A stretch of 64,000 nt of DNA from Candidatus Bathyarchaeia archaeon (GCA_049512075.1 JBEKXL010000005.1:32001-96000), one strand, 5' to 3'. Positions 14,009-55,422 are shown, counted from the first letter of the stretch. A program made the numbers and translations. Notes: generated from the letters alone by a model not told the origin.

Positions 14009-14016
14009 TTGAGCGA

Positions 14017-21042: not shown

Positions 21043-21142
21043 ACTGGCCAGGCAACTGACCTTGCAATCGTTGCATATGGGAAGTGAACCGATCTTTTTA
21101 ATACACGACTGTCCAAGAAGGTTTGGGAACGCGATTAAGACT

Positions 21143-22636: not shown

Positions 22637-22644
22637 CGGAGGGC

Positions 22645-23640
22645 ATGAACATAAATCCCGAAGGATTCGTTAAAGACCTCGAAAACTCTCAAGAAATTCC
22701 TGACCACATCAAACGGCCGAACATCGTAGTTGTCGGCAGCCTACACATGGACTTGACGATCAAGGCCAAGACAATCCCCCGTCTAGGTGAGACAGTGCTC
22801 GGTGACGAGTTCAAGATGTCCCCCGGAGGAAAAGGGGCGAATCAAGCTGTAGCCGCAGCAAAACTGGGGGGAAACGTCACATTAATCGGCAGAGTCGGAA
22901 CTGAGGCTTTCGGAACTGACCTGATAAGAAATACTGGACAGCACCGGATAAACACGAAGTTTATCGTACAAGACAAAGAAACACAGACAGGGCTAGCGTT
23001 GATAATGGTTGACCAGAACGGCAACAACATTATCGCCGTTGCTCCAGGCGCAGATCTGAGGTGCAGCAAAGAAGACATTGACCACGCTGATTCAGTCATA
23101 AAGTCCGCTGACATTTTTCTCGCACAATTAGAAACACCTTTCCCGGTTGTTCAACACGCTATCCAGAAAGCCTTTCAATTCAGAGTCAAGGTGATTTTGA
23201 ATCCGTCTCCAGCTCACAGACTGCCTGAATCTCTACTCAAGAAAGTGTTCGTACTGACTCCGAATGAAAGTGAGGCAGAGAAACTGAGCGGTATTAACAT
23301 AACGGGTTTAAACTCTGCAAAAGAGGCGATCACAGAAATCTTGAAAAAAGGTACCGAAAACATCGTTCTCACGATGGGAAAAGAAGGAGCCCTAGTCGGA
23401 GCAAAAGGAGAAATAGTCCACGTCAAGAGTCCCAAAGTAAACCCGGTGGACACCACCGGTGCGGGAGACGCTTTCTGTGGCGCGTTGGCAGTGGCGATAT
23501 CTTCAGGAGAAAACTTGGAAAAAGCAGTAGTCTACGCGAACTGTGCAGGAGCTTTGGCCACGACCAAGATAGGAGCTCAAGAAGCCTTGCCCACGCGAGA
23601 AGAACTTGAAAGATTCATGAGAAGAAAGGGTCTCGTCTAA
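22645..23640 (+). CDS. rbsK: Ribokinase
   Basis: VVVGSLHMDL, GGKGANQAVAAAKLG, QLETP, PNESE, DTTGAGDAF. Confidence 0.9.
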   Translation: MNINPEGFVKDLENSQEIPDHIKRPNIVVVGSLHMDLTIKAKTIPRLGETVLGDEFKMSPGGKGANQAVAAAKLGGNVTLIGRVGTEAFGTDLIRNTGQHRINTKFIVQDKETQTGLALIMVDQNGNNIIAVAPGADLRCSKEDIDHADSVIKSADIFLAQLETPFPVVQHAIQKAFQFRVKVILNPSPAHRLPESLLKKVFVLTPNESEAEKLSGINITGLNSAKEAITEILKKGTENIVLTMGKEGALVGAKGEIVHVKSPKVNPVDTTGAGDAFCGALAVAISSGENLEKAVVYANCAGALATTKIGAQEALPTREELERFMRRKGLV

Positions 23641-23753
23641 GCTGTCGATTTTGCGCCCTTTTTGCGCCAGAAACCCCGATTCGACGACCACGGCGTGCCG
23701 CCTAACAGGATATATACCTTCATGTTTATTGTTATGCGCGAGAGGCAAGGGAC

Positions 23754-24782
23754 TTGAAGACAGCGGTATACTATGGGCCTCGAGATGTGAGAATTGAAGA
23801 AAAAGAAGTCCCAGAAATCGGTGACAAAGAATTATTGGTTAAGGTCCATGTTTGCGGCGTCTGTGGGACAGATGTTAAAACGGTCCTGAGAGGGCATCCT
23901 CTGATTAAACCTCCAGCGGTTCTTGGGCACGAAATTGCAGGCGATATCATCAGGATAGGAAAAGATGTCACGGAGCACAGAATAGGCGAGCGCGTCGTCG
24001 TCGCCCCGTATGTTCCGGACGGCACATGCTACTACTGCCTGCGTGGGCGATACACGTTGTGCACTGGGCTTTATGAAGAATCACCTACACCGGGCGGGTT
24101 TGCTGAATTCGTAAAGGTGCCGCCTAACATTGTGAAGAAAGGAACGCTTGAAATTCCGAACACAGTTTCATACGAGGAAGCGGCTCTCACCGAGCCTTTG
24201 GCGTGTTGTCTTCACGGAATCGAAGAATGCCACGTTGGTGTAGGCGACTGCGTTGCGATCGTCGGCGACGGCCCAATAGGCCTGATGCATTTGCAGCTGG
24301 CAAAAGTCAAGGGAGCGACGAAGATAATCCTGAGCGGGCAGCTGAATGACCGATTAACGTTGGCGGAGGAACTTGGCGCAAGCGTGACGGTCAACGAAAC
24401 CGAGGAAAACCCTGTCAAAAAGGTTATGGACGAAACGAACAACCGAGGGGGGGATGTGGTCATTGTTGCTGTAGGCAGTGTGGCAGCGGTGGACCAAGGC
24501 CTGAAACTGGTCAGAAAGGGAGGGATAGTGAATCTCTTCGGTGGATTTCCTGGCCAGTCAGAACTCAAGCTTGACCCCAACTTAATTCATTATTCGGAAG
24601 TCACAGTAACAGGAACCTTCGGGTTCTCACACATCAATTTTGCTAGGGCTCTTCAACTGATAAGCACAAGAAGCGTTAAAATGAATAAGCTAATAACACA
24701 CAGGTTCAAACTCGATGAAGTCCTGACAGCCATAGACGTGTTAGCAGATCGCAAAGGGCTTAAAGCCGTTGTGACAATTTAG
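23754..24782 (+). CDS. Zn-dependent (polyol/sugar-alcohol) dehydrogenase, MDR family
   Basis: CGVCGTD, GHE, CYYC..C, EPLAC, GDGPIG. Confidence 0.88.
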   Translation: MKTAVYYGPRDVRIEEKEVPEIGDKELLVKVHVCGVCGTDVKTVLRGHPLIKPPAVLGHEIAGDIIRIGKDVTEHRIGERVVVAPYVPDGTCYYCLRGRYTLCTGLYEESPTPGGFAEFVKVPPNIVKKGTLEIPNTVSYEEAALTEPLACCLHGIEECHVGVGDCVAIVGDGPIGLMHLQLAKVKGATKIILSGQLNDRLTLAEELGASVTVNETEENPVKKVMDETNNRGGDVVIVAVGSVAAVDQGLKLVRKGGIVNLFGGFPGQSELKLDPNLIHYSEVTVTGTFGFSHINFARALQLISTRSVKMNKLITHRFKLDEVLTAIDVLADRKGLKAVVTI

Positions 24783-24786
24783 CTCA

Positions 24787-25596
24787 ATGAAAAAAGAAGG
24801 GAATAACGTGTCTCAAGTTGGCAAAATCCTTCGAATGGGCCGAATATTCGATGAGAAAACCAACAGAACGCTTATTGTAGCTATGGACCACGGCCTGTTC
24901 ATGGGGCCCGTGAAGGGGCTGGAAAAACCCCTCGAAGTCGCCAGAAAAGCGTTGAAAAGTGGTGCAAACGCTCTGGTAGTCACCCCCGGTGTATGCCGTT
25001 TGATCGCTGGAGAAGTAAGAGGCAAGGCCGGAATCATACTTCGAATTGACGGGGCAACCACGGCGTATGGGCCTGATTTTTTTGACGTCCGCAGAATTGC
25101 CAGCGTCAAAGACGCTGCAAGAATGGGTGCAGATGCCGTTATCGCCATGGGATACATGGGAACTCTGAAAGAGAATGAAACCCTGGCAAACCTCAGTCTC
25201 ATCGCCCGTGAATGCGAAGAATTCGGCGTGCCACTCGTGGCAGAGATGATCCCCGTTCAATGTGAAAAAATCAAAGATCCGTACGACGCCGAAATCGTCA
25301 GTCTCGCGGCCCGCGTGGGGGCTGAAATCGGAGCGGACTTGATCAAGACTCACTACACTGGAACTGAAGGCACCTTCAGAGAAGTTGTCAAGGGTTGTCC
25401 GGTGCCCATAGTCATCGCTGGGGGCCCAAAGATGAAAACCGCAGAACAAGCGCTGAAAGTGGCGAAGGAGGCCGTCAACGCGGGAGCAGTCGGAGTGGCT
25501 TTCGGGCGCAACGTGTGGCAGCATGAGAACCCAGAGGCTATGACAAAAGCGATAGCCAAGGTTGTGCATGGAAAAGCTCGATCCAAGAGGCTCTGA
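24787..25596 (+). CDS. DhnA/LsrF-type class I aldolase
   Basis: AMDHG, ARVGAEIGADLIKTHY, IAGGPK, FGRNVWQ. Confidence 0.88.
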   Translation: MKKEGNNVSQVGKILRMGRIFDEKTNRTLIVAMDHGLFMGPVKGLEKPLEVARKALKSGANALVVTPGVCRLIAGEVRGKAGIILRIDGATTAYGPDFFDVRRIASVKDAARMGADAVIAMGYMGTLKENETLANLSLIARECEEFGVPLVAEMIPVQCEKIKDPYDAEIVSLAARVGAEIGADLIKTHYTGTEGTFREVVKGCPVPIVIAGGPKMKTAEQALKVAKEAVNAGAVGVAFGRNVWQHENPEAMTKAIAKVVHGKARSKRL

Positions 25597-25676
25597 AAGG
25601 GTTTGTAGAAAGAACAGCAGAGTGCCAGGTCGTCTCGGAGCGGGAAGCCAGTCTTGCAAGTCCGTGCGCTCGCTTT

Positions 25677-27161
25677 CTATTTTATGGGTTTTTCGGCTAG
25701 GCAGTATTTGCATCTGCTCGGCATCAGTTTTGCTGAAGGACATTGTTTGCAGTAGAAGAATGGAAGGTAAGGCTTTTGCGGTTCCAAGGCGATGAGTTCA
25801 GTGCCGTACAGGCATATCATGGGATCACTGTACAGGTGAAAAGGGTCGTCTGCAAACCGAAGCAATCCACTGAAACGTGCCGTGATGGGACATTCTGGCC
25901 ATGAGTATCTCTGCGGATTCTTCAAGACTTCATTGTCATCTATGGGCTGAAGGTCGATTTTGACGCCGTGAATTTGACCGCCCAGACCAGTCGGAGGCTT
26001 CTCAATCAAGTGTTCTCCCTGAGATAGGAAGCTGACGAATTCATCGTTCATGCATTCATACTCGAACTTTTTAGGATTTTCGAGAAGTAGGTTGAAGTAT
26101 CTTCTCATGAACAGGTCGTTCACCATTTCCGACGTGAACCCGTCAAGCCGCATTATGTGTGCAGCTCCGGCGGCTGTTACCTCCCACGTTGGTATTTCTG
26201 AAGGGTTGCCGAGCTTTCCGTTCTTTTCCGCTCTTTTGATTGTGCTTTCATAGGCTTCTGTCAGGCTCTCAAGGATGGCCATTTCAATGTCGCCCTTGCA
26301 TAGGTTGTAAGTGGTTTGAGAGACGTGGTGGAAGTCTCCGGCAGCCCAGAATGGAATCAAGCTGAGGTTTGCGTAGTGTACGCCTGCCTCAGCAGCCTTA
26401 ACGGTTGCATCGAAAATTCGGTCCTTAAACATCGTCATGCATTTCTCGTAGTCGAAGGATTTTTGTCCCGTTTCTTTCATTAGCTGAACTTGCGTTGCGA
26501 TTGGGTTTAGCCACATTTCTTTCATTCTTTCTTTCTCAGCCTCAGCCGCTTTGTGGACATCGTTGGTGTCCGCTAGTACGGTGAGAAACTTTGAACCGAA
26601 CATTACGCTGTAACTGGTGTTGCGTGCCGCCGATACCGCGTTGATGAAAGCCCATTTGTACTCAGTTTTCATCGGAAGGTTGTCAATGATTCTTCTGAGC
26701 AGGTTTGAGAATGAGCCGGGAGTGGCCACATAATCTGCAATCCACGACGGCCCATAGCGACCGCAAAACCGGGCCAGAACTTCCTCCGTGATCAAGTCGG
26801 TGGACTTGTCAACAGCTTCGGCGACCTTTAAGGAGGCGCGCTTGAAATCTCGGTCGAACTCGTACAGGATTTCAAAAACCGCCGTCGTCTGATAGTGTTC
26901 CAGCCAAGGCTCATCTTCAGGACGCACATAGTCCGTGAGGCTGCTGATAACATCGTACGCGGCCTTCGCTGAAACCGAATAGAGGTCAAAAACGTCCTTC
27001 GACTGTTTCCCGCAGGGGACAAAGCGCTCCTTCGCATGAAGCATCGGCTGCCAATCACTTACCTTAAACCGTCCACCACGCTCCTTTTTGACTGTGTCCA
27101 CCCATGCCTTCTGGATGCTCAAGATTTCATCCGCGATTTTTTCAGCCAATTTACCTCTCAT
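25677..27161 (-). CDS. DUF2193-family protein (divergent), C-terminal Cys cluster
   Basis: SLTDYVRPEDEPWLEHYQT, AAEAGVHYANL, NEVLKNPQRYSWPECPITARFS, CKQC...CKYC; family recalled from memory. Confidence 0.75.
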   Translation of the reverse strand: MRGKLAEKIADEILSIQKAWVDTVKKERGGRFKVSDWQPMLHAKERFVPCGKQSKDVFDLYSVSAKAAYDVISSLTDYVRPEDEPWLEHYQTTAVFEILYEFDRDFKRASLKVAEAVDKSTDLITEEVLARFCGRYGPSWIADYVATPGSFSNLLRRIIDNLPMKTEYKWAFINAVSAARNTSYSVMFGSKFLTVLADTNDVHKAAEAEKERMKEMWLNPIATQVQLMKETGQKSFDYEKCMTMFKDRIFDATVKAAEAGVHYANLSLIPFWAAGDFHHVSQTTYNLCKGDIEMAILESLTEAYESTIKRAEKNGKLGNPSEIPTWEVTAAGAAHIMRLDGFTSEMVNDLFMRRYFNLLLENPKKFEYECMNDEFVSFLSQGEHLIEKPPTGLGGQIHGVKIDLQPIDDNEVLKNPQRYSWPECPITARFSGLLRFADDPFHLYSDPMICLYGTELIALEPQKPYLPFFYCKQCPSAKLMPSRCKYCLAEKPIK

Positions 27162-27335
27162 AGGCGAACCTCGTTTCAAACTCAGCCCTCTATCTACACG
27201 CGCGTCTTCACGCGTGTTTGAATTGCGTCTGTGATCCTTCATAAATATTGTCATACATCAAACACACTCTTCCGATAGGCTCAGAACGGCATTCTCTGAG
27301 TTGAAAAAGTATTATTAGTGACTCATTAACCTTGG

Positions 27336-28127
27336 ATGAGGCTGGAGGGATTCTCGGTGCGTCAAGGAGAACTAAGGGGCAGCGTGGCCTTGGTTACCGG
27401 AGCTGGGTCTGGGATTGGACGTGCCATTGCTGTTCTTTTCGCTTGTGAAGCTGCGAAAGTGGCTGTTGCTGATGTGAGTGAAGGTGACGGAAAGAATACA
27501 GTCGAGCTCATCAAGAAAGAGGGTGGGGACGCGATTTTTGTCCAAGGAGACGTATCCAAGTCTACTAGTGTCAAGAGAATGGTCGAAGCAACTGTTGAAA
27601 AATACGGGAAGCTTAACGTACTCGTTAACAATGCGGGAGTCGAATCCACAGGCTCTGTCGTGGAGGTTACGGAGGAGAACTGGGACAAGGTCATCGATAT
27701 CAACTTGAAAGGCACTTTTCTCTGCTCAAAGTACTGCGCGCCAAGAATAATTGAAAGTGGGGGCGGTGCGATTATCAACATTGCCTCAGTGCTGGGTCTG
27801 GTAGGTTCTAAAGGTGAAGCTGCTTATTGCGCCTCAAAGGGGGGCATGATATCGCTTACGAGAGCCATGGCATTGGATTTCGCTTCCGAGAATGTCCGTG
27901 TGAACTGCATCTGTCCAGGCTCTGTCCTCACTCCGACGTTTAAACGAGTGATGATTGCTTCAGGAGACTATGACATCGCATTTGCCCGAAACCTGGAAAA
28001 GATACCGCTTAGACGCGTCGCAGCTCCTGAAGAAATCGCCCAAGCAGCACTGTTCTTGGCGTCGGAGAAATCTTCCTATATGACTGGAGCCGCCTTGGTA
28101 ATGGATGGCGGGTGGTCAACATCTTAG
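27336..28127 (+). CDS. Short-chain dehydrogenase/reductase
   Basis: TGAGSGIG, NNAG, YCASK, ICPG. Confidence 0.92.
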   Translation: MRLEGFSVRQGELRGSVALVTGAGSGIGRAIAVLFACEAAKVAVADVSEGDGKNTVELIKKEGGDAIFVQGDVSKSTSVKRMVEATVEKYGKLNVLVNNAGVESTGSVVEVTEENWDKVIDINLKGTFLCSKYCAPRIIESGGGAIINIASVLGLVGSKGEAAYCASKGGMISLTRAMALDFASENVRVNCICPGSVLTPTFKRVMIASGDYDIAFARNLEKIPLRRVAAPEEIAQAALFLASEKSSYMTGAALVMDGGWSTS

Positions 28128-28144: not shown

Positions 28145-29239
28145 TTAGAAAATGGTTTTCTCAGTCGCTTTGTCAAAAATGTGAATACGCTGGTCGTTAA
28201 ACTTCACAAAGACTTTTTCTCCTTCTTCGAATCTGAAGAGAGGATCAACTTTTGCTGTGATTATGGATGACCCGATTTCTAGGCTTGCGTATCCGGTGTC
28301 TCCGAAATGTTGGAAAAGCCAGACTTTGGCTTCAACTGCGCCTTTGGACTGTTCTTTGTTCACGTAAACGTGTTCGGGTCTGATGCCCATCACTGCGTCG
28401 CGCTCAGTGAACTTTTTCTCTTTCATTGAGTCTCTGCTGCTTTCAGAGATTTCCATTTGGAACGCGCCAGTTTCCACGTATGGCTCACCGTTCTTTTCCA
28501 ATAAGTGGCAATCAACGAAATTCATGACTGGTATGCCCACGAACGTAGCGACGAACTTGTTGATTGGGTGATCGTAAATGTTCAGCGGCTTGTCAATTTG
28601 ATGCAGCAAACCGTCCTTCATAACGGCTATTCTGTCAGCAAGCACCATTGCTTCAGCCTGGTCATGAGTGACATAAACCGTGGTCGTTTTCAGCCTTTCG
28701 TGCAGCTTCTTCAATTCGCCTCTCATCTTGATTCTCAGGATCGCGTCTATGTTTGAAAGTGGCTCGTCCAAAAGGTAGATGGAAGGCTTCCTGATTGCCG
28801 CCCTGGCTAAAGCGACACGTTGTCTTTGTCCTCCGCTGAGTTGGCCAGGCCTGCGTTCCATGAGGTCACCAATCTGAAGTAGATCCGCCGTTTCCTGGGC
28901 TCTCTTCTTAATCTCTTCTTTCGGAACATTTGTGACTTGGAGGCATAGAGTGATGTTGTCATAAACTGACATGTGTGGATAAAGAGCATAGTCCTGGAAA
29001 ACCATGGCAACTTTTCGTTCCTTCGGTTCAAGGTCAGTCACCCGTTTTTCATCAAAGAAGATGTCTCCGCTCGTCGGTTGCTCTAGTCCTGCAATCATCC
29101 TGAGGGTCGTTGTTTTACCGCATCCAGAAGGTCCAAGCAGAACAAGGAACTCGCCGTCCTCTATCTCAAGGTTCAACTCGTCGACAGCCTTCACTTTCTT
29201 GAAGTGTTTGCAGAGATCCTTAAGGGTTATTTTTACCAA
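28145..29239 (-). CDS. Sugar ABC transporter ATPase (MalK-like)
   Basis: GPSGCGKTT, FQDYALYPHM, LSGGQRQR, DEPLSN, TOBE tail. Confidence 0.95.
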   Translation of the reverse strand: MVKITLKDLCKHFKKVKAVDELNLEIEDGEFLVLLGPSGCGKTTTLRMIAGLEQPTSGDIFFDEKRVTDLEPKERKVAMVFQDYALYPHMSVYDNITLCLQVTNVPKEEIKKRAQETADLLQIGDLMERRPGQLSGGQRQRVALARAAIRKPSIYLLDEPLSNIDAILRIKMRGELKKLHERLKTTTVYVTHDQAEAMVLADRIAVMKDGLLHQIDKPLNIYDHPINKFVATFVGIPVMNFVDCHLLEKNGEPYVETGAFQMEISESSRDSMKEKKFTERDAVMGIRPEHVYVNKEQSKGAVEAKVWLFQHFGDTGYASLEIGSSIITAKVDPLFRFEEGEKVFVKFNDQRIHIFDKATEKTIF

Positions 29240-29293
29240 CTATTTTCACACGTTGTTTAGCTTTTGTTGGTAACCATGATTCTTTTCTGTTTC

Positions 29294-30301
29294 TTAAGGT
29301 TTGCCCATGACATTGTGAACCCGCGGATTCTGTGCTTTGCTCAGTCTGAGGCATTTTCTTATCGTTAAGGGATTCACTTTGCCGGCCTCACATATTTCCC
29401 CTGTCTTCAGGTTGTTTATCATAACCTGGGCTGGTCGAAAGATACCGGGGTAGCCGGGGATTTTCCTGAAATCGTTTTTTGCATGTTTCAGCAATTCTGA
29501 AAAGGTTTTTCCATAGATAGGGGTGGACTCAAACACTAGTTCCTTCGCAAGTCTGTGTATGTCTTCATTGTCTGGCTCTATGGTCATGTACACTGTTCCA
29601 CCATAGCAAAGGAAATCATCTGGAAACGTCTTCATCTCGTCCGATGGACAGACGGGAACTATCGGAGCTGTTCCAACCATTTGTCTGACTTTTCTCACAT
29701 CATAGTGGAGAATTTCCCACATTGTGAATGTAACATCCTCTATTGCTCGGCCTGCAATCTGGGTCGCGCCTGCGATGCTTCGTAGGGGAGTAATGAGCAT
29801 GAACAAGGACGCAGGATCAATATTGCATTCCACAGCGATTCTTTTGGACAACTGCACGGAAGGCAGGTCGTCCATTTGAAGTACTATCACGCCGACCCTG
29901 GAATCGTCATTAACATCCAGCATGTCAAAGAGTTCCTTAGGCTTCTGCGCCAGAACTCTTGCAGGACCAGAGGCAATTGAGGTTGTTTCTTTCTGTTTAA
30001 GCAAGGGATAGCCCGCTTGGACGCCCAAAGTAGCAATAGCAGGCGAGTCTGTCATTACTGTTGCTGCGGGGAGTATCAGGTCTCCGAGTTGTACCATGGT
30101 CAACGATGCCTTGCCAAGTCCACCGAGACAGATCTCGATGATCAGCCTGCCAACTTCAAACCCTCCTCGTGCATGGACTCCACAATCCAATATGGTGGCT
30201 CCACTGTCCGACATTGTGACTACTACACCGAACTTCTCGGGGCACTCCAGAATTCCGTTAACTATCCTGAAAGAAATTTCATTCACTTTTATTCTAGGCA
30301 T
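29294..30301 (-). CDS. Mch-like paralog 2, divergent
   Basis: ILDCGV, ICLGGLG, TDSPAIA, ASGPARVLA, SIAGATQIAGRAIE, YGG. Confidence 0.85.
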   Translation of the reverse strand: MPRIKVNEISFRIVNGILECPEKFGVVVTMSDSGATILDCGVHARGGFEVGRLIIEICLGGLGKASLTMVQLGDLILPAATVMTDSPAIATLGVQAGYPLLKQKETTSIASGPARVLAQKPKELFDMLDVNDDSRVGVIVLQMDDLPSVQLSKRIAVECNIDPASLFMLITPLRSIAGATQIAGRAIEDVTFTMWEILHYDVRKVRQMVGTAPIVPVCPSDEMKTFPDDFLCYGGTVYMTIEPDNEDIHRLAKELVFESTPIYGKTFSELLKHAKNDFRKIPGYPGIFRPAQVMINNLKTGEICEAGKVNPLTIRKCLRLSKAQNPRVHNVMGKP

Positions 30302-30311
30302 GTTGAATTCA

Positions 30312-31274
30312 TCAGGTTTCTTGCGCGTACTTGGGATCGGAGGTCTCATGCGAGTTTTCAACGAGTTCTCGCAGGTATATCTTGTTTTTCCCCCAGAGAC
30401 CTCCTTGGTTGAAGCTGCTTATTCCTGTTATTCCTTGTATTCTTGTGATCGTGTCCAAGGAGACTCTCAAGCCCTTTTTCACGGTTTCCAGGTCTAGACT
30501 CCAGACCAGATACTCAATAACAGTGTTGACTCCTAGAGGAACTCTAGTTTCCGCGATCCTGTTACGGATAGTCGGGCACAAGAAAGTCGTGCTTGTCGCT
30601 TTTTCGTTTGTGTAATTAACGCCTCCAATTTTCGCTCCATTCAAACCTCCAAACGGGTGCATCACAAAGGCTCCATCAACCTCATCTTGAACCCTCTCGG
30701 CTGCGGCTCTGGTTGCCAATAGAGCGCAAGAAATGTCCTGACAGAAGAGTTCAAACGCACCATCAAAACTTGTGGTTAATCCAAAGGATTTCTCGACTAT
30801 CGATTCGCCACTCATCACTGGAATGCGGTATATTTTTCTTCCTTCGAGCTGGTCTTCCGTCTCGTAGCCGTCGCCCCAGCGCCTGACCGTTTCGCCCGAG
30901 TTCGTTGTAGCAAGTGTTTTTCTTTTCGGGACTGCGTTGAAAACTGCAACTGTAGGCATGTGTGGAGTTTGGCAGAGCATGTTGGTGAATGCGTCTTCAA
31001 ACATTTTCCTTCCGTCTTCAGTTTCAATGCTCATGCTTCTATTTCCTCGCAGAAGGACAAGGAAGCCTGGTCTCCTATCAGGGGTTTTCGTTGGCGATAC
31101 AGAGTTGCCCAGAAAGCCTTCGATCGGCGAGAAGGTTATGATTCCCCTGCACAGTCGTTGAGCGTTGGCCAGCGCAGCTTCTCTTGTGAGGCTGGTTACG
31201 AGGATTTCGGAGGATATTATTTCGCTGGATTCTATGTAAGTGTCTTCGATGTCCACGCCATTGATCTTCAGCAT
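30312..31274 (-). CDS. Formylmethanofuran:H4MPT formyltransferase (Ftr)-like protein, divergent
   Basis: KINGVDIEDTY, TPDRRPG, PTVAVFN, WGDGYE, RIPVMSGE, CPT, NQGGLWG..IYL. Confidence 0.85.
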   Translation of the reverse strand: MLKINGVDIEDTYIESSEIISSEILVTSLTREAALANAQRLCRGIITFSPIEGFLGNSVSPTKTPDRRPGFLVLLRGNRSMSIETEDGRKMFEDAFTNMLCQTPHMPTVAVFNAVPKRKTLATTNSGETVRRWGDGYETEDQLEGRKIYRIPVMSGESIVEKSFGLTTSFDGAFELFCQDISCALLATRAAAERVQDEVDGAFVMHPFGGLNGAKIGGVNYTNEKATSTTFLCPTIRNRIAETRVPLGVNTVIEYLVWSLDLETVKKGLRVSLDTITRIQGITGISSFNQGGLWGKNKIYLRELVENSHETSDPKYAQET

Positions 31275-31309
31275 CAGATTGCAGGTCCGTGGTGGTTGGT
31301 GCTCACGTT

Positions 31310-32383
31310 TTACCAAGGATTGCTCATGAGTCTTCCAATAATGTCTTTGTGAACTCTGCCAGCCTTGTGCATCCTTCCTGTCCTAGTGTCGCTTATAGCG
31401 AACTCTCCAATTATGAAACCAAGTCCTTCTTTGGCGAGCTTGTGCAAATCCAACGTCGGATCGATGTACTTCTTTTCTTCCACTGCCATGTGATAGAATG
31501 ATGTGCCGAAGGTGTTCGGATAGTTCTCTATTACTGATTCCTTAACCATCGTCCCGAAATCCTCTCCTTCTTCTGAACGAACCCAACAGTGAACTGTACC
31601 GCCATATCTGATCATGTCATCGGGCCAGCTGCAAGGTTGCTGCAGAGCTTTCGGCGAAACCGGCGAAATCGGTGTGGTTCCCATAACGTTCTCTATGCGA
31701 CGATAAGGAATCTTGTAATATTCAGTGAGTCGCCAGAACATGTCTTCCACACCCCGCGAGGAGGTTTGAGTGGTTCCCGTTATGCTGTCTGTGGGAATGA
31801 CAACCAAGTATAGATTTTTCGGGTCGATTCTGCACCTCTTTGCGATGATTTTTGAGAATTCTTCATCTGGAAGACCGTCCATGCGTGAACGTGTTTGGAC
31901 CAAGAGGACCGCGTTGTCAGGGTGAGGATCTTCGTAGGGCCATTTCTCAAATATCTTGGCTGGTTCTTGAGCTATAGCCTTCGCCGGTCCTGATATCCAG
32001 GCTGTGAACTTTTTGGTTCCAACGTGCGGTGGCGGGATCACCCCGACCCACACGTACATGGAAAGGGCTATGAAGGGTGGAAAATCTGTGTAGTGGATGA
32101 GAACAGGTAGAGTCAGGTCATCGTACGTGACAGCGGTCACTTGCGCTTCTCCGAACCCCCCGAAGGCGATTTTTGTGGTCAGCTCTCCGGCTTTGTAGCC
32201 TCCAGACACGTTTACGCCGCAGTCCAGTATTGTTGTTCCGTTCTTTAGTTCCTCTACAGCGACGTTCAATCTATCGCTGTTCTTGATCATTTCCTTCACG
32301 ATATCAAGTGAGCGTTGATTTATGCTCACTTTTTCCCAGCGTTTCAGCATCTTTTCCATGAAGCTCATTTTCCAAATCTCCAT
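31310..32383 (-). CDS. Mch-like paralog 3, divergent
   Basis: SINQ, ILDCGVNVSGG, TDFP, ISGPAKAIA, SITGTTQTSSRGVE, YGG. Confidence 0.82.
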   Translation of the reverse strand: MEIWKMSFMEKMLKRWEKVSINQRSLDIVKEMIKNSDRLNVAVEELKNGTTILDCGVNVSGGYKAGELTTKIAFGGFGEAQVTAVTYDDLTLPVLIHYTDFPPFIALSMYVWVGVIPPPHVGTKKFTAWISGPAKAIAQEPAKIFEKWPYEDPHPDNAVLLVQTRSRMDGLPDEEFSKIIAKRCRIDPKNLYLVVIPTDSITGTTQTSSRGVEDMFWRLTEYYKIPYRRIENVMGTTPISPVSPKALQQPCSWPDDMIRYGGTVHCWVRSEEGEDFGTMVKESVIENYPNTFGTSFYHMAVEEKKYIDPTLDLHKLAKEGLGFIIGEFAISDTRTGRMHKAGRVHKDIIGRLMSNPW

Positions 32384-32550
32384 AATCTCGAAGAGGACTA
32401 ATCACATAGCCCTATTTTAAAAGCTTATCCTCCGTTCCACGGTTTTGAAGTTAGCGAATGCCAGGCATCTACGGGTCAGCTTGACTGGTGCGCAAAGAAT
32501 AAAAGATGTGCCAAATGAAGATATTCTCTAAGATGCTAGAAGGAAACGGC

Positions 32551-33897
32551 ATGGCCAGCATACTGATCAAGAACGCAATCATCGTGACGATGGATGAACA
32601 AAGAACTATTCTCAAAGATGGTGCACTGGCGATAGAAGACGACAAAATCGTTGCAGTAGGCAACAGCAAGGAACTCACAAGACAATATTCTTCAGACGTC
32701 ATAATAGACGCCAAAGGAAAAGCTGCCATGCCGGGTTTCGTAAACACTCACAGTCACCTATACCAGAACCTGCTTAAGGGAATGAGAGACGACCTTCCGC
32801 TAGTGAACTGGATCTACGACGTGACGATGCCTCTGATCAAAGAGGAGTTCCAGAGCTCGTTGAAGGGAAACTTTGAAATCGGCTACCATGCAGCAATGCT
32901 CGGATGCCTCGAAGCGCTTCGGTCTGGAACTACCTGCATCGTTGACATGAACTTGCGTAACCCCAAAGTGCCAGAAGCATTCAAACAGACCGGCATTCGA
33001 GGAGTATACGCGATGAGCTTAGCGGACCAGTGGGTTCCTCCTGAAGTTTTGCTTCCCAGAGATCAGATGATGCAGATGTTCAACCAAATTGCCAGTCGGT
33101 GGCACGGAGCTGAGAATGGCCGAATACTGTGCATGTACGGCCCCTCAACGCCCTTCATCTGTTCAAAAGAACTGTTGCAGGAAATAAGGGAACTGGCAGA
33201 CAAAAACGGAATGCACATTCACATACACGTTTCAGAGACGAAATACGAACGCGATCTGGTCACGAAAGAAACTGGTAAGCGACCCGTGGAATATCTTTAC
33301 GGCCTAGGCTTTCTAGGAAACGATGTTTCCGCCGTCCACTGCGTTTGGGTTTCCAATCGAGAGATCAATCTTTTGAAAAAAACTCGCACCAACGTCTCAC
33401 ACAATCCTGAGAGTAACATGAAGCTAGCATCAGGAGTTGCTCCCATTCCGGAAATGCTGAAAAAAGGTATAACAGTTTCCCTGGGCACCGATGGGTGTGC
33501 AAGCAACGACAATTTGGACATGTTTGAAGCTATGAGAGCGGCGGCTTTTCTGCACAAAGTCTCAAGTCTAGACGCTTCAGTCATGTCTTCCTATGACGTG
33601 CTAAAGATGGCGACCATTGAAGGCGCTAGGACAATTGGTCTTGAAAACCAGATAGGATCGTTGGAAGTAGATAAGAAGGCGGATGTGATCTTGGTTGATT
33701 TGGAAAAGCCTCATCTGAGACCGCTCAACAACATAGTCGGCACTTTGGTTTACTGCGCCAACGGAGGAGATGTTGAAACAGTCATCGTGGACGGCAGAAT
33801 CGTCGTGCAAGAAGACACTGTCCGGACAGTGAACGAGAAGAACGTCATTGAGCAGGCAGAAGAGAAAGTTAAAGAACGTTTCGAGTTTCAGACTTAA
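32551..33897 (+). CDS. Amidohydrolase, MTA/SAH or nucleobase deaminase family
   Basis: PGFVNTHSH, HIHVSET, AVHCVW, HNPESNMKLASG, GTDGCASNDNLDMF. Confidence 0.9.
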   Translation: MASILIKNAIIVTMDEQRTILKDGALAIEDDKIVAVGNSKELTRQYSSDVIIDAKGKAAMPGFVNTHSHLYQNLLKGMRDDLPLVNWIYDVTMPLIKEEFQSSLKGNFEIGYHAAMLGCLEALRSGTTCIVDMNLRNPKVPEAFKQTGIRGVYAMSLADQWVPPEVLLPRDQMMQMFNQIASRWHGAENGRILCMYGPSTPFICSKELLQEIRELADKNGMHIHIHVSETKYERDLVTKETGKRPVEYLYGLGFLGNDVSAVHCVWVSNREINLLKKTRTNVSHNPESNMKLASGVAPIPEMLKKGITVSLGTDGCASNDNLDMFEAMRAAAFLHKVSSLDASVMSSYDVLKMATIEGARTIGLENQIGSLEVDKKADVILVDLEKPHLRPLNNIVGTLVYCANGGDVETVIVDGRIVVQEDTVRTVNEKNVIEQAEEKVKERFEFQT

Positions 33898-34321: not shown

Positions 34322-35626
34322 ATGCAAAGAAAATACATGTACTCAATCGTCGGCATCGTCATCATACTTATCGCAGCAGTTGCGGTCTACTGGGTTTGGC
34401 AAAACCAGACATCAGGAGTCACACTTGAGTTTTGGGCTCCATTCGCAGGAGAACCGTCTGTCGACAACTTCTGGGGCAACGTGAGCGCAGCATACAAGAA
34501 TGCAACTGGAGTTACCGTTCAAGTCTCGATGTATACAGGTGATGAGTTCTTCACAAAGATAACAACGGCGCTTGGATCCGGCGCTCCGCCCGACCTATTC
34601 TCAACATACGGCGGAGGAGAACTTGACACATACGTCAACGAAAGCGCAGTAGCAGACATATCTGCCTTGTACAGCGAGAGCTGGGCTCAGACGCAAATCC
34701 CCGCTAACGCAAAAGCCACAGAAACCAGAAACGGCCTTCAATATGCGATTCCGTACGAACTGCAAACCGATTGGCTATTCATTAATCAGGCACTATTTAA
34801 CAAGTATAACGTTACAATTCCGTCTATCGGCACTGGGTGGACATGGGATCAATTCCAGAACGCTTGCAATACGTTCAAAGCAAACGGCATCGTCCCAGTT
34901 GCCATGAGTGGCGCAGACACATGGTCATTAACTTTCCCAGAATGCTACATATTCGAGCGTGCAAATGGACCTGACGCCTTTGGGCAAGCCCTCACGCGTC
35001 AAACAAACTTCACGAACTACTACCAGAACGCGTTCTCGAAAATACAGCAATGGGTGAACAGTAGCGACTTTCAAGCAGGCTGGACAACGGCCCACTATGA
35101 TGTAGATGCGTTGCCGCTGTTTCAAAATGGACAGGCGGCAATGTGGGTCCAAGGCACATGGGGCGTTGGAATGGTTCAGGATAACTCTTCGATACCGTTC
35201 CAGTTGGGTGTGGTGCAGTGGCCCTACTTCGCAGATCACCCTGAAGCAAACAAGTATATCTTTGGCGAATACACCAGCATCGCAGTTGCAAATGCAAGCA
35301 AACAAAAGTCAACAGCAGAAGACTTCCTGAGATTCATATCACAACCACAATGGATAATAAGCTACGCTCAGCAGACGTACAATCCAGTCGCTCAGAACGT
35401 AGCTCTACCCGCAAACACGTACCCAGCAGTTATGACGACGATTCAGACGGCCGTCAACAATGGCCCAGGGCTCATCGTAAGATATGGAAGCCAAGCACCC
35501 TCAGCATTAGCGAGCACGCTGGACACGCAAAACCTACTCGTGTTCACAGGTCAAGCAACACCGTTAGCCGCAGCTCAAGCTGACGAAGCCCAGGCAGTCA
35601 GTGTAATCGGACCTGTTCACGGATAG
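34322..35626 (+). CDS. ABC transporter extracellular solute-binding protein (carbohydrate/nucleoside class)
   Basis: N-terminal TM anchor, PDLF, YAIP, WTWDQF, FQNGQAAM..GTW. Confidence 0.88.
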   Translation: MQRKYMYSIVGIVIILIAAVAVYWVWQNQTSGVTLEFWAPFAGEPSVDNFWGNVSAAYKNATGVTVQVSMYTGDEFFTKITTALGSGAPPDLFSTYGGGELDTYVNESAVADISALYSESWAQTQIPANAKATETRNGLQYAIPYELQTDWLFINQALFNKYNVTIPSIGTGWTWDQFQNACNTFKANGIVPVAMSGADTWSLTFPECYIFERANGPDAFGQALTRQTNFTNYYQNAFSKIQQWVNSSDFQAGWTTAHYDVDALPLFQNGQAAMWVQGTWGVGMVQDNSSIPFQLGVVQWPYFADHPEANKYIFGEYTSIAVANASKQKSTAEDFLRFISQPQWIISYAQQTYNPVAQNVALPANTYPAVMTTIQTAVNNGPGLIVRYGSQAPSALASTLDTQNLLVFTGQATPLAAAQADEAQAVSVIGPVHG

Positions 35627-35649
35627 GATCACTCAAGGCACAGATAACG

Positions 35650-36675
35650 ATGGTGAAGCTTCGTATTCCTGCTGAATTAAAGAGAAGCATGGCCCCCCTT
35701 AAGGCTCAGCTTAGAAAAAGCAGAACTTTGTACACGACGCTGGCCCTTCCTAAGAAAAGCACACGCACGCCGGTGGCACTAGTCAAGGCGGGCATAAAGA
35801 AAAACTGGACGCTATACGTGCTACTGGGTCCTGCGCTTTTCATCTACATTCTTTTTTTCATTTATCCTGTGATAAATGGATTATCTTTCGGGTTTTACAG
35901 ATACTCGGGCGTTTCTCAAGTCAAGTATTTCATAGGTTTCAAAAACTATGTTGACATCGCCACTGATCCTCAGTTCCAGCTTGCTTTGTACAACACTGTC
36001 ACTATAACGGCAGCCAATTCCGTTGCACAGTTCTTGTTGGGATTCAGCCTCGCATGGTTGGCACGAAAATACGGCAGGGTCGGAAATGTCTTTCTTTCAG
36101 TGGCCCTCATTCCCATAGTGTTATCGTTCGTATCGGTAGGCCTTATGTGGCAATGGATCTACAACGCTCAGTATGGACTCTTGAATTCTCTTATTGCGTT
36201 CTTTCGCATAAACAGTGCACTGAACTTTCTCAGCCTGCCCACAATTCCAACATCTTTAACCTCTACCGCGCCTCTGCTGGCAATACTCTTGGCAGCAAAC
36301 TGGCAAGGAATAGGATTGTATGCAGTCATCTATTCTGCAGGTCTACGGGCCATCTCCCCATCAATATACGACTCGATGAGGGTGGACGGACTATCTGACA
36401 CCCAGAAGATCAGACGAGTGATCTGGCCGATGATGAAGGACACGATTGCACTTGCGCTCGTCCTCGTAATGTCATCATCATTCAAAATCTTCGATTTAGT
36501 CTGGGTGTTGACAGGGGGAGGACCAGGTCGCCTCTCCGACGTCATCTCAACATATCTTTATAGGTACGTTGGATCTTTCCAAGCCGGATACGCTTCGGCG
36601 GTCGCGTTCTATATACTACTGATAGGCGTTGCGCTCATTATCCTTCAATCCAGATTTATTCGGACGGAGAAGTGA
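35650..36675 (+). CDS. Sugar ABC transporter permease 1
   Basis: FIGFKNY, W.WIYN..GLLN, EAA-like loop YDSMRVDG, FDLVWVLTGGGP. Confidence 0.92.
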   Translation: MVKLRIPAELKRSMAPLKAQLRKSRTLYTTLALPKKSTRTPVALVKAGIKKNWTLYVLLGPALFIYILFFIYPVINGLSFGFYRYSGVSQVKYFIGFKNYVDIATDPQFQLALYNTVTITAANSVAQFLLGFSLAWLARKYGRVGNVFLSVALIPIVLSFVSVGLMWQWIYNAQYGLLNSLIAFFRINSALNFLSLPTIPTSLTSTAPLLAILLAANWQGIGLYAVIYSAGLRAISPSIYDSMRVDGLSDTQKIRRVIWPMMKDTIALALVLVMSSSFKIFDLVWVLTGGGPGRLSDVISTYLYRYVGSFQAGYASAVAFYILLIGVALIILQSRFIRTEK

Positions 36676-36682
36676 TTTAGCC

Positions 36683-37537
36683 ATGAGTTCAGAATATGGC
36701 CGGGGAAATTCGCTCAGAAAACGGTTTACCCTCGTTGTCGGCTTCGCTGTCTTGATACTCTGGTCGATTTTAGCGATATATCCTCTGATATGGACTGCTC
36801 TAACTTCTCTCAAGACGAATTCAGAAATCTTTACCAACATATGGGGCCCCCCAATTAGTCCTCAGTGGCAAAACTACGCCAAGGCTTGGACAACAGGCAA
36901 TATGGGAACCGCCTTCATAAACTCCATGATAGTCACTGGGCTTACTATACTTGTACTATTTTTGATTTCTCCGATGGCAGCATACGCCTTAGGCAGAGCA
37001 GAACATCGACTCAAAGGGCCAATACTGTACTTTTTGCTTGCTGGCATGTACATTGCCCCTCAGGTCTCAATCGTGCCCCTCGCAGTTCTGCTCCAGAATT
37101 TTGGCTTGATGAACTCATTATTTGGCCTAGTACTGGTTTACGTTGCCTCAGGTCTTCCATACTCAGTTTTCATATCTAGACTGGGGTTCTTAACCATCCC
37201 TTCATCATTGGAAGACGCGGCTAAAGTGGACGGTCTATCGACTTTCCAGACCTATTTGAGAGTGACACTGCCACTTGCGATGCCAACAGTCCTAATAGCC
37301 ATGATTCTGGAAGCCATATTCGTGTGGAACGATTTCTTGTACCCACTCGTCTTCATCACTTCACGTAATTTCAACACCTTACAGCTGGCTCTTTTCGATT
37401 TCCAGGGCAGGTTACCCCAATATGGCCCCCTGTTTGCAGGAATACTGATTTCGACTATACCCCTACTGATACTCTACATCATTTTCTCCGAAAGAATCAA
37501 GAAAGGAGTAGCCGCAGGAATAGGCGTAAAAACATAG
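36683..37537 (+). CDS. Sugar ABC transporter permease 2
   Basis: TSLKT, NS, AAYAL, LEDAAKVDG, WNDFLYP. Confidence 0.92.
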   Translation: MSSEYGRGNSLRKRFTLVVGFAVLILWSILAIYPLIWTALTSLKTNSEIFTNIWGPPISPQWQNYAKAWTTGNMGTAFINSMIVTGLTILVLFLISPMAAYALGRAEHRLKGPILYFLLAGMYIAPQVSIVPLAVLLQNFGLMNSLFGLVLVYVASGLPYSVFISRLGFLTIPSSLEDAAKVDGLSTFQTYLRVTLPLAMPTVLIAMILEAIFVWNDFLYPLVFITSRNFNTLQLALFDFQGRLPQYGPLFAGILISTIPLLILYIIFSERIKKGVAAGIGVKT

Positions 37538-37598: not shown

Positions 37599-38600
37599 CT
37601 ACTTCCCAAATACTTTCTTGAATACTCTCACAAAGTTCTCGCCTAGAATGTTTTTTATTTCCGTGTCCGAGTAACCTCTCCCGACCAGGCCTTTGGTGAT
37701 GTTTGGAAAATCCGTTATGGTCTCAATTCCTCTTGGCCAATTGTAGATTCTCTTGTCTATCTTCATGAGGGTCATTCTCGTCGGTGGATACTCTGCCCAC
37801 CCTTCCGCAAAGTCCAACCCTATCCCGACGTGGCTAGCCCCGACAAGCTTAACTATGTAGTCGATGCTGTCGAGTAGGTCGTCGACGGTACATTTGTCTG
37901 GATCCTTGCTTATGAGTCGCGGGAATGCAGTCACGCCGATGACGCCGCCTCTCTCAGCTATCGTTTTTATTTCTTCGTCTGTCTTGTTTTGATATTCGTC
38001 CACGAGTGCTCTGGGGTTCGAGTGCGAAGCTATCACGGGATCTTCTGAGGCTTCCGCGGCTTCCAGGACACTCTTTTTTCCGACATGCGCCAAATCCACA
38101 ACCATTCCCAAGCGGTTCATCTCTTTGACAAGTGAGATCCCGAAAAGACTAAGGCCGGAATCTGTTCGCTCTCCGCCGCCATCAGCCGCAGCATTCCTGA
38201 AATGGTAACTCAACTGGATTATTCTAACTCCCAAGTAATGGTAGAGCTTCAACAGTCTCAGATCATTCTCAAGTGGCTGGATATTCTGAAAGCCCAAAAT
38301 AATAGCAGTCTTTCCCTCCCGTTTTGCCTTGACAATATCTTCTACTGTAGTCGCAAGAACCACAGTTTCGCTCTCTCCAGTTACCATATCTTGCATGTCC
38401 AGAATCCTCTTGACAGTCTCAGACATGTTGTGCATCATAGCGATGGTGTAGTTTGTGGCCGTGACTCCTCCCTTTTGAAGTTTCTTAAAATACTCATCTG
38501 ACATGATTGATGCGTTCAAAGAATCAACTATGACAGCATCTCGATGAATATTCAGAGCTCTCTTCATCTCTTCAGCGCCAAGTTTTCTCACTCTATTCAC
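37599..38600 (-). CDS. Membrane dipeptidase (M19) family protein, atypical metal motifs
   Basis: GVRIIQL, DSGLS.FG, MNRLGMVVDLAH, ASHSN, HVGIGLDF, ILGENF. Confidence 0.85.
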   Translation of the reverse strand: MNRVRKLGAEEMKRALNIHRDAVIVDSLNASIMSDEYFKKLQKGGVTATNYTIAMMHNMSETVKRILDMQDMVTGESETVVLATTVEDIVKAKREGKTAIILGFQNIQPLENDLRLLKLYHYLGVRIIQLSYHFRNAAADGGGERTDSGLSLFGISLVKEMNRLGMVVDLAHVGKKSVLEAAEASEDPVIASHSNPRALVDEYQNKTDEEIKTIAERGGVIGVTAFPRLISKDPDKCTVDDLLDSIDYIVKLVGASHVGIGLDFAEGWAEYPPTRMTLMKIDKRIYNWPRGIETITDFPNITKGLVGRGYSDTEIKNILGENFVRVFKKVFGK

Positions 38601-40797: not shown

Positions 40798-40837
40798 TTT
40801 CTGTTCTCCTCCAATTTTCAAAGATCATCCTTCGTTT

Positions 40838-41818: not shown

Positions 41819-41829
41819 TTCACCCCTGC

Positions 41830-43818: not shown

Positions 43819-43943
43819 GTGCTTTTTCACCTATACGCTGAGGGGTAAGTTGTAGGAATATTCATTGTCCTATAAATATGAGCGCGTCTTCTTCAAGTAC
43901 CGACGGTTTTGTCACGCGTACTGTGCATCAGGTTCGACCGCGT

Positions 43944-46363: not shown

Positions 46364-46395
46364 TCACAACACCAGCACATGCGTCCTTGACTGTT

Positions 46396-55390: not shown

Positions 55391-55422
55391 TTTTGCACTA
55401 TCCTAACACTCATCAAGCCATT

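Follow-up and report, generated by a model that had tools for sequence, protein, structure and literature searches.

Divergent Mch- and Ftr-like paralogs as the probable core of a rare catabolic island in Bathyarchaeia

An mch-ftr-mch-malK gene set lies at positions 28145-32383 of a 64,000-nt stretch (the window) of the genome of a Candidatus Bathyarchaeia archaeon (JBEKXL010000005.1:32001-96000). Mch and Ftr are textbook single-function enzymes of methanogenesis, methanotrophy and the archaeal Wood-Ljungdahl pathway, and serve as marker genes in metagenomes. The copies found here are best explained as central parts of a catabolic island that is rare and moves laterally, and not as spare copies of one-carbon (C1) pathway genes. 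Their host, G000, is a metagenome-assembled genome (MAG) of a peat archaeon, with an assembly of 2.73 Mb that is 99.8% complete and yielded no archaeal 16S rRNA gene. A first-pass annotation of the window had read the four minus-strand open reading frames of the set as two Mch-like proteins, an Ftr-like protein and an ATP-binding cassette (ABC) ATPase, named here MchA, MchB, FtrL and MalK. The frames are present at these coordinates, and Pfam searches confirmed the families. The third Mch-like gene that it placed at 20077 (MchC) was also found, as were the other transporter subunits expected at 34322-37537, namely an SBP_bac_1 binding protein and two permeases (Table 1). MerL, a Mer-like gene back to back with MchC, had been missed.

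All three Mch-like proteins match the family of canonical Mch (PF02289, TIGR03120; PDB 1qlm, 4gvq) over its full length (PF02289 profile positions 1-309 of 311), and MchC is about 36-45% identical to solved Mch. Identity to canonical Mch is 33% for MchA, 38% for MchB and 36% for MchC, and the three are 30-34% identical to each other. We searched a set of 61 genomes that consists of G000 and 60 relatives, among them the genus-mate G003. The canonical Mch of the relatives scores 356-425 bits on PF02289 and is present as a single full-length copy per genome. Only G002 and G003 among the 60 carry a second full-length Mch, G033 and G041 carry extra fragments at contig ends, and nine of the 61 genomes have no Mch match. 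Additional divergent copies (~195-291 bits) were restricted to G000, G002 and G003. A protein database search recovered 26 relatives of MchA at 47-99% identity.

The phylogeny sets these paralogs apart. In the Mch tree (71 rows), a canonical clade of 32 rows (SH-aLRT support 99) excludes MchA, MchB and MchC, each of which falls in a separate deep clade. The MchA clade has 30 rows (support 100), the MchC clade three (100) and the MchB clade four, made up of a starred three-row core and locus L027 on an unsupported fork. This tree and the Ftr tree (75 rows) are quick searches with midpoint rooting, and canonical sampling in both is almost wholly from Bathyarchaeia; the canonical rows of the Mch tree are Bathyarchaeia and two others, a Jordarchaeia locus (L024) and a metagenome locus (L037). 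As the paralogs branch outside the canonical clades in both trees (clade supports 99), their proposed divergence from canonical Mch and Ftr is borne out. Ratios of non-synonymous to synonymous substitution (dN/dS) were 0.064 for MchA (against G003), 0.141 for MchB, 0.154 for MchC and 0.151 for FtrL, which indicates that purifying selection maintains the genes.

The Mch-like proteins also carry an altered active-site signature, examined in 33 canonical and 46 non-canonical rows with M. kandleri numbering taken from an alignment to solved Mch. All 33 canonical rows read Q93, K118, E140, R183, E186 and N226. In the non-canonical rows, E186 is retained throughout (46/46), as in canonical Mch, and R183 in most (35/46, with Ser in the remaining 11, all from the MchA family). 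In contrast to canonical Mch, E140Q and N226D are near-universal (45/46 each) and K118 is mostly lost (retained in just 9/46). We take Arg183 and Glu186 to be the catalytic pair of Mch, for which E186Q entries exist in the PDB; both residues are present in MchA, MchB and MchC. In the A. fulgidus structure, residues 93-95, K118, R183 and E186 are reported to line the Mch active site. MchB keeps Q93 and K118 as well and carries E140Q and N226D, MchA carries K118E, E140Q and N226D, and MchC combines the same three substitutions with an insertion in the Q93-W97 loop. The motifs quoted in the first-pass annotation occur in the translations (GRSVE and PDDMLSYGS in MchC, GRAIE and PDDFLCYGG in MchB, SRGVE and PDDMIRYGG in MchA). 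However, PDD does not serve as the subfamily marker that it was taken for: any of seven residues (P, A, S, M, E, V, Q) precedes position 226 in the non-canonical rows, and the signature conserved across the 46 members is xDD (x = P, A, S, M, E or V) with E140Q, the latter being as good a clade marker as xDD. Likewise, the claim that the R-x-x-E motif is kept holds for the three window copies but not for the 11 members with Ser. The SQxAGW motif was said to be lost from all three; MchA does lack the Q, but MchB keeps Q-AG-Y and MchC keeps the Q and the GW around an insertion of ~7 residues. The 93-97 loop is rebuilt in every copy.

FtrL is divergent as well. It shares the two-lobe architecture of canonical Ftr (PF01913 and PF02741; PDB 1ftr, 1m5s), and its E268, invariant in 19/19 FtrL sequences, aligns with Ftr Glu245, which we take to be the catalytic acid. 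The N-lobes of the genome's own canonical Ftr copies score 168 and 148 bits, against 74.6 for FtrL, which is 30% and 26% identical to these copies. Its NCBIfam scores (165.6 and 160) are about half the family cut-offs of 297 and 292.6. In the Ftr tree, an FtrL superclade of 36 rows stands opposite 39 canonical-side rows (support 99 each) and contains a Bathyarchaeia clade (28 rows), a Hadesarchaea/L031 clade, a Bipolaricaulis/L034 clade and P0026. Among 1.84 billion representatives we found one FtrL cluster at at least 50% identity, with the next matches at 35-38%, and a search of 5.8 billion proteins returned 23 relatives at 56-97%, after which identity fell to 33%. MchB is gained and lost together with FtrL, and G003 lacks both. 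A candidate FtrL-Mch fusion in L023 was rejected, as the long frame encodes an MCH domain only and FtrL is read in a different one. The fusions of Ftr with FwdA-like and GXGXG domains among our matches are of canonical Ftr.

Next, we surveyed the linkage of these genes by tblastn of 31 window proteins against 17 loci. Besides the window, nine of 11 FtrL-type loci hold an Mch-family gene within the fetched stretch, and the other two are contigs of 2.6 and 5.2 kb. Genes for DUF2193, PfkB and FGGY kinases, a cog0402 amidohydrolase (AmidoH2), an M19 metallohydrolase and MalK recur at FtrL-type loci, whereas none of the six was found at the five canonical-Ftr loci (L024, L025, L026, L036 and L037; 0/5). 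FtrL is thus linked to DUF2193, kinases and a deaminase, unlike canonical Ftr with its Fwd genes, and the Mch-like paralogs, unlike canonical Mch, are in a catabolic setting and not with C1 or Wood-Ljungdahl genes. L020 and L021, both from Bathyarchaeia, reproduce the gene order of the window, L027 and L028 read MchA-FtrL-MchB-MalK-SDR (short-chain dehydrogenase/reductase) up to the contig ends, and L029 reads permease-FtrL-SDR with MchA adjoining. Three near-identical contigs (L031-33), whose FtrL is 39% identical to that of the window, carry MchA, an MFS transporter, AmidoH2, FtrL, DUF2193, PfkB, an ADP-ribosylglycohydrolase-family gene, FGGY and a purple acid phosphatase in that order; L031 additionally has MalK, a second Mch-like gene and M19. 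L022 (binned as Hadesarchaea) has FtrL-DUF2193-PfkB, L023 (binned as Bipolaricaulis) FtrL-Mch-like-AmidoH2, and L034 permease-FtrL-Mch-like. Taken together, the set recurs in distant Bathyarchaeia, in archaeal-looking contigs of no assigned group and on the short Hadesarchaea- and Bipolaricaulis-binned contigs.

The modules vary around this core. In the island of G003, MchA runs directly into MalK, and FtrL and MchB are absent. G385, which belongs to the same order as the window host and to a different family, has a window-type operon and two further modules. One contains an Ftr-like gene (28%), an Mch-like gene, AmidoH2, FAD_binding_4, CCG/Fer4 and M19; the other contains MchA, GFO_IDH_MocA, an Ftr-like gene (36%), AmidoH2, GFO_IDH_MocA and M19. 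Sugar oxidoreductases accompany all three modules of G385. The constant core is therefore an Ftr-like gene, an Mch-like gene, a cog0402 amidohydrolase and M19, accompanied by varying sugar-acting genes and an importer. Such conserved linkage to transport and catabolic genes, recurring in distant lineages, had been anticipated, as had a distinct Mch subfamily. The latter is real, since the paralogs form separate clades, canonical copies exist elsewhere in the genome and the linkage is conserved. An obligate heterotrimer of the Mch-like proteins, also suggested, is unlikely, because MchA occurs without MchB in G003, L029 and L031-33. A single 71-kb contig, G385:C12 (L084/L085), holds three Ftr-like, two AmidoH2, three M19 and two binding-protein genes and four of the five Mch-family matches of G385. 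Here the module has expanded locally, and the oxidoreductases differ between copies (GlcD/GlcF-like and Gfo/Idh/MocA).

The cluster lies in a region that close relatives lack. MchA-type genes (E<=1e-60) were found in 4/401 Bathyarchaeia-class genomes, G000 included. In the genus-mates G004 and G001, genes for an HflX-like GTPase, aTrm56, TFE-alpha, HD, DUF2110, EamA and dihydrodipicolinate synthase (DHDPS) are colinear with 3.7-12.5 kb of the window, and the DHDPS homolog (window 11562-12458) is followed by homologs of 54748-56415, with no island genes between them (L099, L101). This direct junction means that ~42 kb (~12.6-54.7 kb of the window) is accessory. Its right end has a tRNA-Val (51732-51808), DNA of 0.38-0.41 GC and a weak archaeal integrase-like fragment (54437-54793; 25 bits, under the cut-off). 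Helix-turn-helix regulators and a GNAT gene also stand at this border.

In contrast to the rare paralogs, canonical copies are found elsewhere in the genome, as the first-pass annotation had asked. A canonical Mch fragment at a contig edge (C18:2-307) carries GSQYAGW and shares 97% of 107 aligned residues with the canonical Mch found in a genus-mate. Canonical Ftr is present twice, on C22 and C2. G000 also has two Fae genes, one of them in a Fae-Hps fusion frame that lies outside the island. Searches of the G000 genome for Mtd (PF01993) and Fhs found neither, and the beta-RFAP synthase model TIGR00144, which scores under its cut-off even in G000 and G385, is uninformative on the biosynthesis of tetrahydromethanopterin (H4MPT). 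Gene content (canonical Mch, two Ftr, two Fae) nevertheless indicates that the host runs H4MPT chemistry. A canonical-type Ftr gene overlaps a PfkB-family kinase gene in G000 (C2, L072 6294-8185) and in G003 (L097 3244-5039), so Ftr-PfkB pairing is not limited to FtrL.

The partner genes point to nitrogen heterocycles and sugars. AmidoH2 groups with cog0402 deaminases. Among NCBIfam models it scores highest on ethylammeline chlorohydrolase (460.6) and 5'-deoxyadenosine deaminase (418.5), in both cases under cut-off. The solved proteins closest to it, MTA/SAH deaminase, 8-oxoguanine deaminase and AtzA, are deaminases of the purine, pterin or triazine type. It is linked to core genes in L020, L031-33, L023 and G003 and twice in G385. 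MalK scores 424.2 on the UgpC model (cut-off 432) and follows MchB in L020, L021, L027 and G385, and MchA in G003. With its OB/TOBE MalK-type ATPase, SBP_bac_1 protein and two BPD_transp_1 permeases, the transporter is a CUT1 importer. The FGGY kinase scores 377.9 on XylB (cut-off 380.25) and the PfkB kinase 335.9 on ribokinase, above the cut-off of 299.65; both also flank FtrL-DUF2193 in L022 and L031-33. M19 is syntenic in L020, L031, G003 and three G385 modules. MerL, with 259.3 bits on TIGR03555 (cut-off 348.7), is the best Mer-like match of the genome, and of the 60 relatives only G002 and G003 have an ortholog of it at 84% identity or more. An SDR gene stands beside FtrL or MalK in L020, L021, L027, L029, L030 and G003.

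DUF2193 is the least familiar partner. Among the 61 genomes it is present only in G000, G002 and G003, matching the divergent Mch copies exactly, and it adjoins FtrL on the downstream side in L022 and L031-33. Its AlphaFold2 model is all-alpha (mean predicted local distance difference test 93.5). None of the 324 matches listed by Foldseek against the PDB (E up to 10) reaches E<=0.001, and a sequence-atlas search with DUF2193 gave no usable match. DUF2193 turned up in two papers of the literature searched. The one study devoted to it shows that it binds [4Fe-4S] and neighbours an MIP channel in methanogens, and assigns it no function (PMC12375889). The island would be the first non-methanogen genomic context for this family. 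An alignment that includes the copies from L022, L031-33 and L069 reveals an invariant His/Asp cluster (H262, D276, H278, H279) and a C-terminal Cys motif. These residues suggest that DUF2193 has a catalytic site of its own and does not serve purely to carry an Fe-S cluster.

What might such a gene set do? Mch adds water to a cyclic -N=CH-N- amidine and so yields an N-formyl amine (methenyl- to formyl-H4MPT), and Ftr transfers formyl groups between amines. We tentatively propose, at somewhat less than even confidence, that the Mch-like proteins are neofunctionalised cyclic-amidine hydrolases that work with a formyl transferase on an imported ribosylated or glycosylated amino-N-heterocycle. The ABC system would import this compound and the cog0402 amidohydrolase would strip its exocyclic amino group. 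Through their retained Glu, and usually Arg, the Mch-like enzymes would carry out the same hydration on a cyclic -N=CH-N- amidine of this compound. From the resulting N-formyl amine, FtrL, with its catalytic Glu kept, would pass the formyl unit to a tetrahydropterin, which here would be H4MPT. MchC and MerL could carry the C1 unit onward, the ribokinase, the xylulokinase-like kinase and the dehydrogenases would use the sugar, and M19 and DUF2193 may handle the remainder. We infer the substrate, every reaction, the acceptor and the co-transcription of the operon. Our best guess for the substrate is a purine nucleoside, because its two CH-amidine carbons would match two cyclohydrolases. Thermodynamically, N5 of H4MPT is a more favourable formyl acceptor than N10 of folate, and the route would require no molybdenum hydroxylase. 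The partners all act on C-N bonds or sugars, and the distant lineage of L031-33 adds an ADP-ribosylglycohydrolase-family gene and an MFS transporter, which we count in favour. IMP cyclohydrolase/AICAR transformylase follows a comparable logic, in which a cyclic amidine and an N-formyl amine are interconverted and the formyl group is transferred with a pterin; the likeness to this enzyme and to clostridial formiminotransferase-cyclodeaminase is in the proposed logic only, with no sequence relationship.

Several observations weigh against this proposal. MchC (283.4) and MchB (262.5) exceed the Mch equivalog cut-off of TIGR03120 (228.8), below which only MchA (191.1) falls, and therefore may remain methenyl-H4MPT cyclohydrolases. 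The binding protein of the importer is closer to binders of pentose oligosaccharides than to nucleoside binders: its nearest solved relatives are specific for oligosaccharides of the xylo-, arabino- or chitin type, and even the best of them scores just 110 bits. The sugar genes could therefore simply serve the use of hemicellulose. Neither a nucleoside phosphorylase nor a nucleoside hydrolase was found in the window, and the ADP-ribosylglycohydrolase-family gene was seen only in L031-33. G130 (74% complete) has three Mch-like genes and no Ftr match. Finally, the MAGs that hold L023 and L022 have formate-tetrahydrofolate (THF) ligase and no canonical Mch or Ftr match. If the binning of these contigs is right, which is uncertain as they are only 4.3 and 5.2 kb long, H4MPT is not the universal acceptor.

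An H4MPT analogue of formimino transfer was one of the two options of the first-pass annotation, the other being direct amidine ring hydrolysis. In the former, a ring-opened intermediate such as formiminoglycine would pass its formimino or formyl group through FtrL to H4MPT, and the Mch-like enzymes would act as cyclodeaminases that convert formimino-H4MPT to methenyl-H4MPT and NH3. With ammonia in place of water, the reaction would depart little from the Mch back-reaction, and N226D, T187D/N and E140Q bring further acidic or amide groups close to the catalytic Arg and Glu. Formiminoglutamate deiminase is another member of the cog0402 group, and AmidoH2 gives a weak match to it (156.9 bits). 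Parts of the island have the appearance of purine breakdown: at 12638-15120, 42880-48995 and 50194-51579 of the window there are an SsnA-like amidohydrolase gene overlapping one for a PreA/DPD-like Fe-S flavoprotein, a carbamate kinase (above cut-off), two OTC-family carbamoyltransferases and a hydantoinase/dihydropyrimidinase-like gene. These are typical of anaerobic purine breakdown (10.1101/2025.05.19.654654). However, the conserved core contains no enzyme that makes formiminoglycine or formiminoglutamate, the purine-type genes at 42.9-51.6 kb are not beside the cluster in G003 and such genes are unlinked to the core outside the genus, and the sugar kinases and importer are left unexplained. 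We therefore consider the formimino route unlikely. As the invariant partner is a purine/pterin/triazine-type deaminase and the conserved core has no formimino source, the evidence leans towards direct amidine ring hydrolysis. The same three stretches also hold threonine-synthase-like and CysK-like pyridoxal phosphate enzymes and a DUF1611/DgcN-like gene.

The sugar genes invite a second explanation, in which the paralogs are near-isofunctional isoenzymes at a pentose or xylo-oligosaccharide locus, where the Mer-, Mch- and Ftr-like proteins act as a source or sink of the C1 units (formaldehyde via Fae-Hps) that the interconversion of C5 and C6 sugars requires. This would agree with a binding protein nearest to xylo-/arabino-oligosaccharide binders, with an FGGY kinase that scores as xylulokinase and a PfkB kinase that passes as ribokinase, with the Fae-Hps fusion frame and second Fae of the genome, with two Mch-like proteins above the equivalog cut-off, and with MerL as the best Mer-like gene. 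Yet canonical Mch and Ftr are already in the genome, residues invariant in canonical Mch are replaced, Mtd was not found in the genome and Fae-Hps lies outside the island. The constant partners AmidoH2, M19 and DUF2193 would also stay unexplained, even in modules with quite different sugar genes. We regard this explanation as having a low probability, on a par with the formimino route.

Equally improbable, in our estimate, is the scavenging of pterin cofactors, in which a methanopterin-type cofactor from methanogen necromass would be the substrate, AmidoH2 a pterin deaminase and M19 the enzyme that trims the amide-linked tail. As part of the same scenario, the Mer-, Mch- and Ftr-like proteins would keep their pterin-binding scaffold, and the kinases and dehydrogenases would use ribose and ribitol. 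All three paralog families bind H4MPT in their canonical form, which would explain their joint recruitment. The cog0402 group contains pterin and isoxanthopterin deaminases, and 2paj and 3hpa, presumably pterin-type deaminases, are among the AmidoH2 matches. The ATPase scores best as UgpC, a phosphodiester importer type, the L033 cluster has a purple acid phosphatase, and FtrL and an Mch-like gene occur in MAGs with C1 genes of THF type and not of H4MPT type, although the binning of those two short contigs is uncertain. The fit is purely circumstantial, however, and the supply of cofactor seems small for a 42-kb island. We know of no methanopterin-scavenging pathway, and a literature search on methanopterin salvage or degradation found nothing relevant. 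That the paralogs are decaying duplicates without current function is very improbable: the MchC of G003 does have one in-frame TAA, but dN/dS is 0.06-0.15 for MchA, MchB, MchC and FtrL, the frames are intact in G000, G002 and G385, and the clades are conserved down to ~30-50% identity with linkage retained. This TAA (L069, G003:C1, ~19440) replaces the Gln codon of the window, and together with the lack of FtrL and MchB it may mark a decaying island variant or a sequencing error.

The gene set has partial parallels among known systems. In the methylotroph formyltransferase/hydrolase complex (Fhc), an Ftr homolog reportedly works beside an amidohydrolase-superfamily protein. AmidoH2 differs from the partners in Fhc and Fwd, as it is of the cog0402 deaminase type and not FwdA/FhcA-like, and the cluster has no homologs of a B or C subunit. 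A reductive uric-acid cluster with xdhD, ygfK, ssnA, hyuA, ygeW, ygeX and yqeA is described for E. coli (10.1101/2025.05.19.654654). Judged by sequence, the SsnA-, PreA/DPD- and hydantoinase-like genes, carbamoyltransferases and carbamate kinase of the island resemble parts of this bacterial cluster, here in an archaeon. However, all of them except carbamate kinase score under equivalog cut-offs, no XdhD or YgeX ortholog was identified, and the E. coli pathway has no Mch or Ftr component. Paralogy of Mch, Ftr and Mer is itself already known. Divergent Ftr2, Mch2 and Mer2 are reported from anaerobic methanotrophic archaea (ANME) and methanogens, with Ftr2 described as uncharacterised (PMC9012536). 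In comparison with Ftr1 and Ftr2, FtrL is a third, more distant type with its own superclade.

Categorical novelty would thus come only with confirmation of the proposed chemistry. Our literature search, which covered main texts, found no account of this cluster or of Mch or Ftr with a new function, and no paper that places paralogs of either enzyme beside catabolic or transport genes or beside DUF2193. The source records already label the paralogs as cyclohydrolase and formyltransferase, and annotation pipelines will over-call C1 metabolism from such genes. The island probably encodes an undescribed catabolic pathway in Bathyarchaeia, which are among the most abundant archaea of anoxic sediments and peat. 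In its strongest form, which we hold to be doubtful, the proposal would make these the first members of the Mch and Ftr folds outside C1-carrier interconversion: MchA and MchB would open a purine-type ring at C2 and C8 by a molybdenum-independent, purely hydrolytic route, with the carbons kept as formyl-tetrahydropterin and with the novel-fold Fe-S protein DUF2193 taking part, and the system would be spreading as a mobile island among anaerobic archaea and possibly bacteria.

Table 1. Positions of the cluster genes and associated features in the window.
Feature	Position	Strand	Evidence
MchA, most divergent of the Mch-like genes, first in the operon	31310-32383	-	PF02289, 198.8 bits
FtrL, divergent two-lobe Ftr-like protein	30312-31316	-	FTR 74.6 + FTR_C 72.6 bits
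MchB, Mch-like; real start probably ATG at 30301	29294-30361	-	PF02289, 272.7 bits
MalK/UgpC-type ABC ATPase	28145-29239	-	ABC_tran, OB_MalK, TOBE_2
MchC, third Mch-like gene	20077-21042	+	PF02289, 291.4 bits
MerL, Mer-like F420-type LLM oxidoreductase, divergent from MchC	19011-20027	-	TIGR03555, 259.3 bits
FGGY (xylulokinase-like) kinase, PfkB ribokinase, Zn-ADH (zinc alcohol dehydrogenase); run headed by MchC	21035-24782	+	
319-aa gene overlapping the end of DUF2193	24784-25743	-	no Pfam/NCBIfam match
DUF2193 [4Fe-4S] protein; likely start 27161	25677-27254	-	PF09959, 441.8 bits
SDR oxidoreductase	27336-28127	+	NCBIfam
Intergenic region between divergent MchA and AmidoH2; TATA-like element CTATTTTAAAAG at ~32412-32424	32384-32505		read from sequence
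AmidoH2, cog0402 deaminase-type amidohydrolase, divergently paired with MchA	32506-33897	+	Amidohydro_1, 234.5 bits
CUT1-type ABC importer: SBP_bac_1 binding protein and two permeases	34322-37537	+	Pfam
M19 (renal-dipeptidase-type) metallohydrolase	37599-38600	-	PF01244, 293.7 bits
Accessory island, approximate extent, containing the whole cluster	12638-54793	.	absence in genus-mates

The genes from MchA to MalK may form one transcription unit, to judge by how closely and in what conserved order they are arranged. The overlap between MchA and FtrL measures 7 nt, an internal ATG of MchB follows the FtrL stop after 10 nt, and 54 nt separate MchB from MalK; the order MchA-FtrL-MchB-MalK is kept in L020, L021, L027 and G385. 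The TATA-like element CTATTTTAAAAG is a putative promoter of the intergenic region between MchA and AmidoH2. A scan of promoters and terminators with a sigma-70 model, ill-suited to archaea, stayed at background level. The run headed by MchC had been described as kinase, dehydrogenase and aldolase genes; the kinases and the zinc alcohol dehydrogenase are there, but no aldolase was found in it.

The 319-aa gene at 24784-25743 is conserved in L020 (78%) and L021 (31%) and weakly in G130 (24%). It was considered as a counterpart of the ADP-ribosylglycohydrolase-family gene of L033 and rejected, as the two have no similarity; leads from a feature search all remained below 0.9. At 14979-18916 of the window, two genes for tungsten-type aldehyde:ferredoxin oxidoreductases stand tail to tail beside MerL, and a homolog (42% identical) lies near MchA, MerL-like and PreA-like genes in G130 (L086). 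The minus strand at 38790-42786 encodes a lipoate ligase together with the E1 alpha, E1 beta and E2 subunits of a 2-oxoacid dehydrogenase complex. The lipoate ligase and E2 are syntenic with the cluster in three distant lineages (L032/L033 4092-6029; L084 8-1174), which hints at a 2-oxoacid as the end product of the island pathway.

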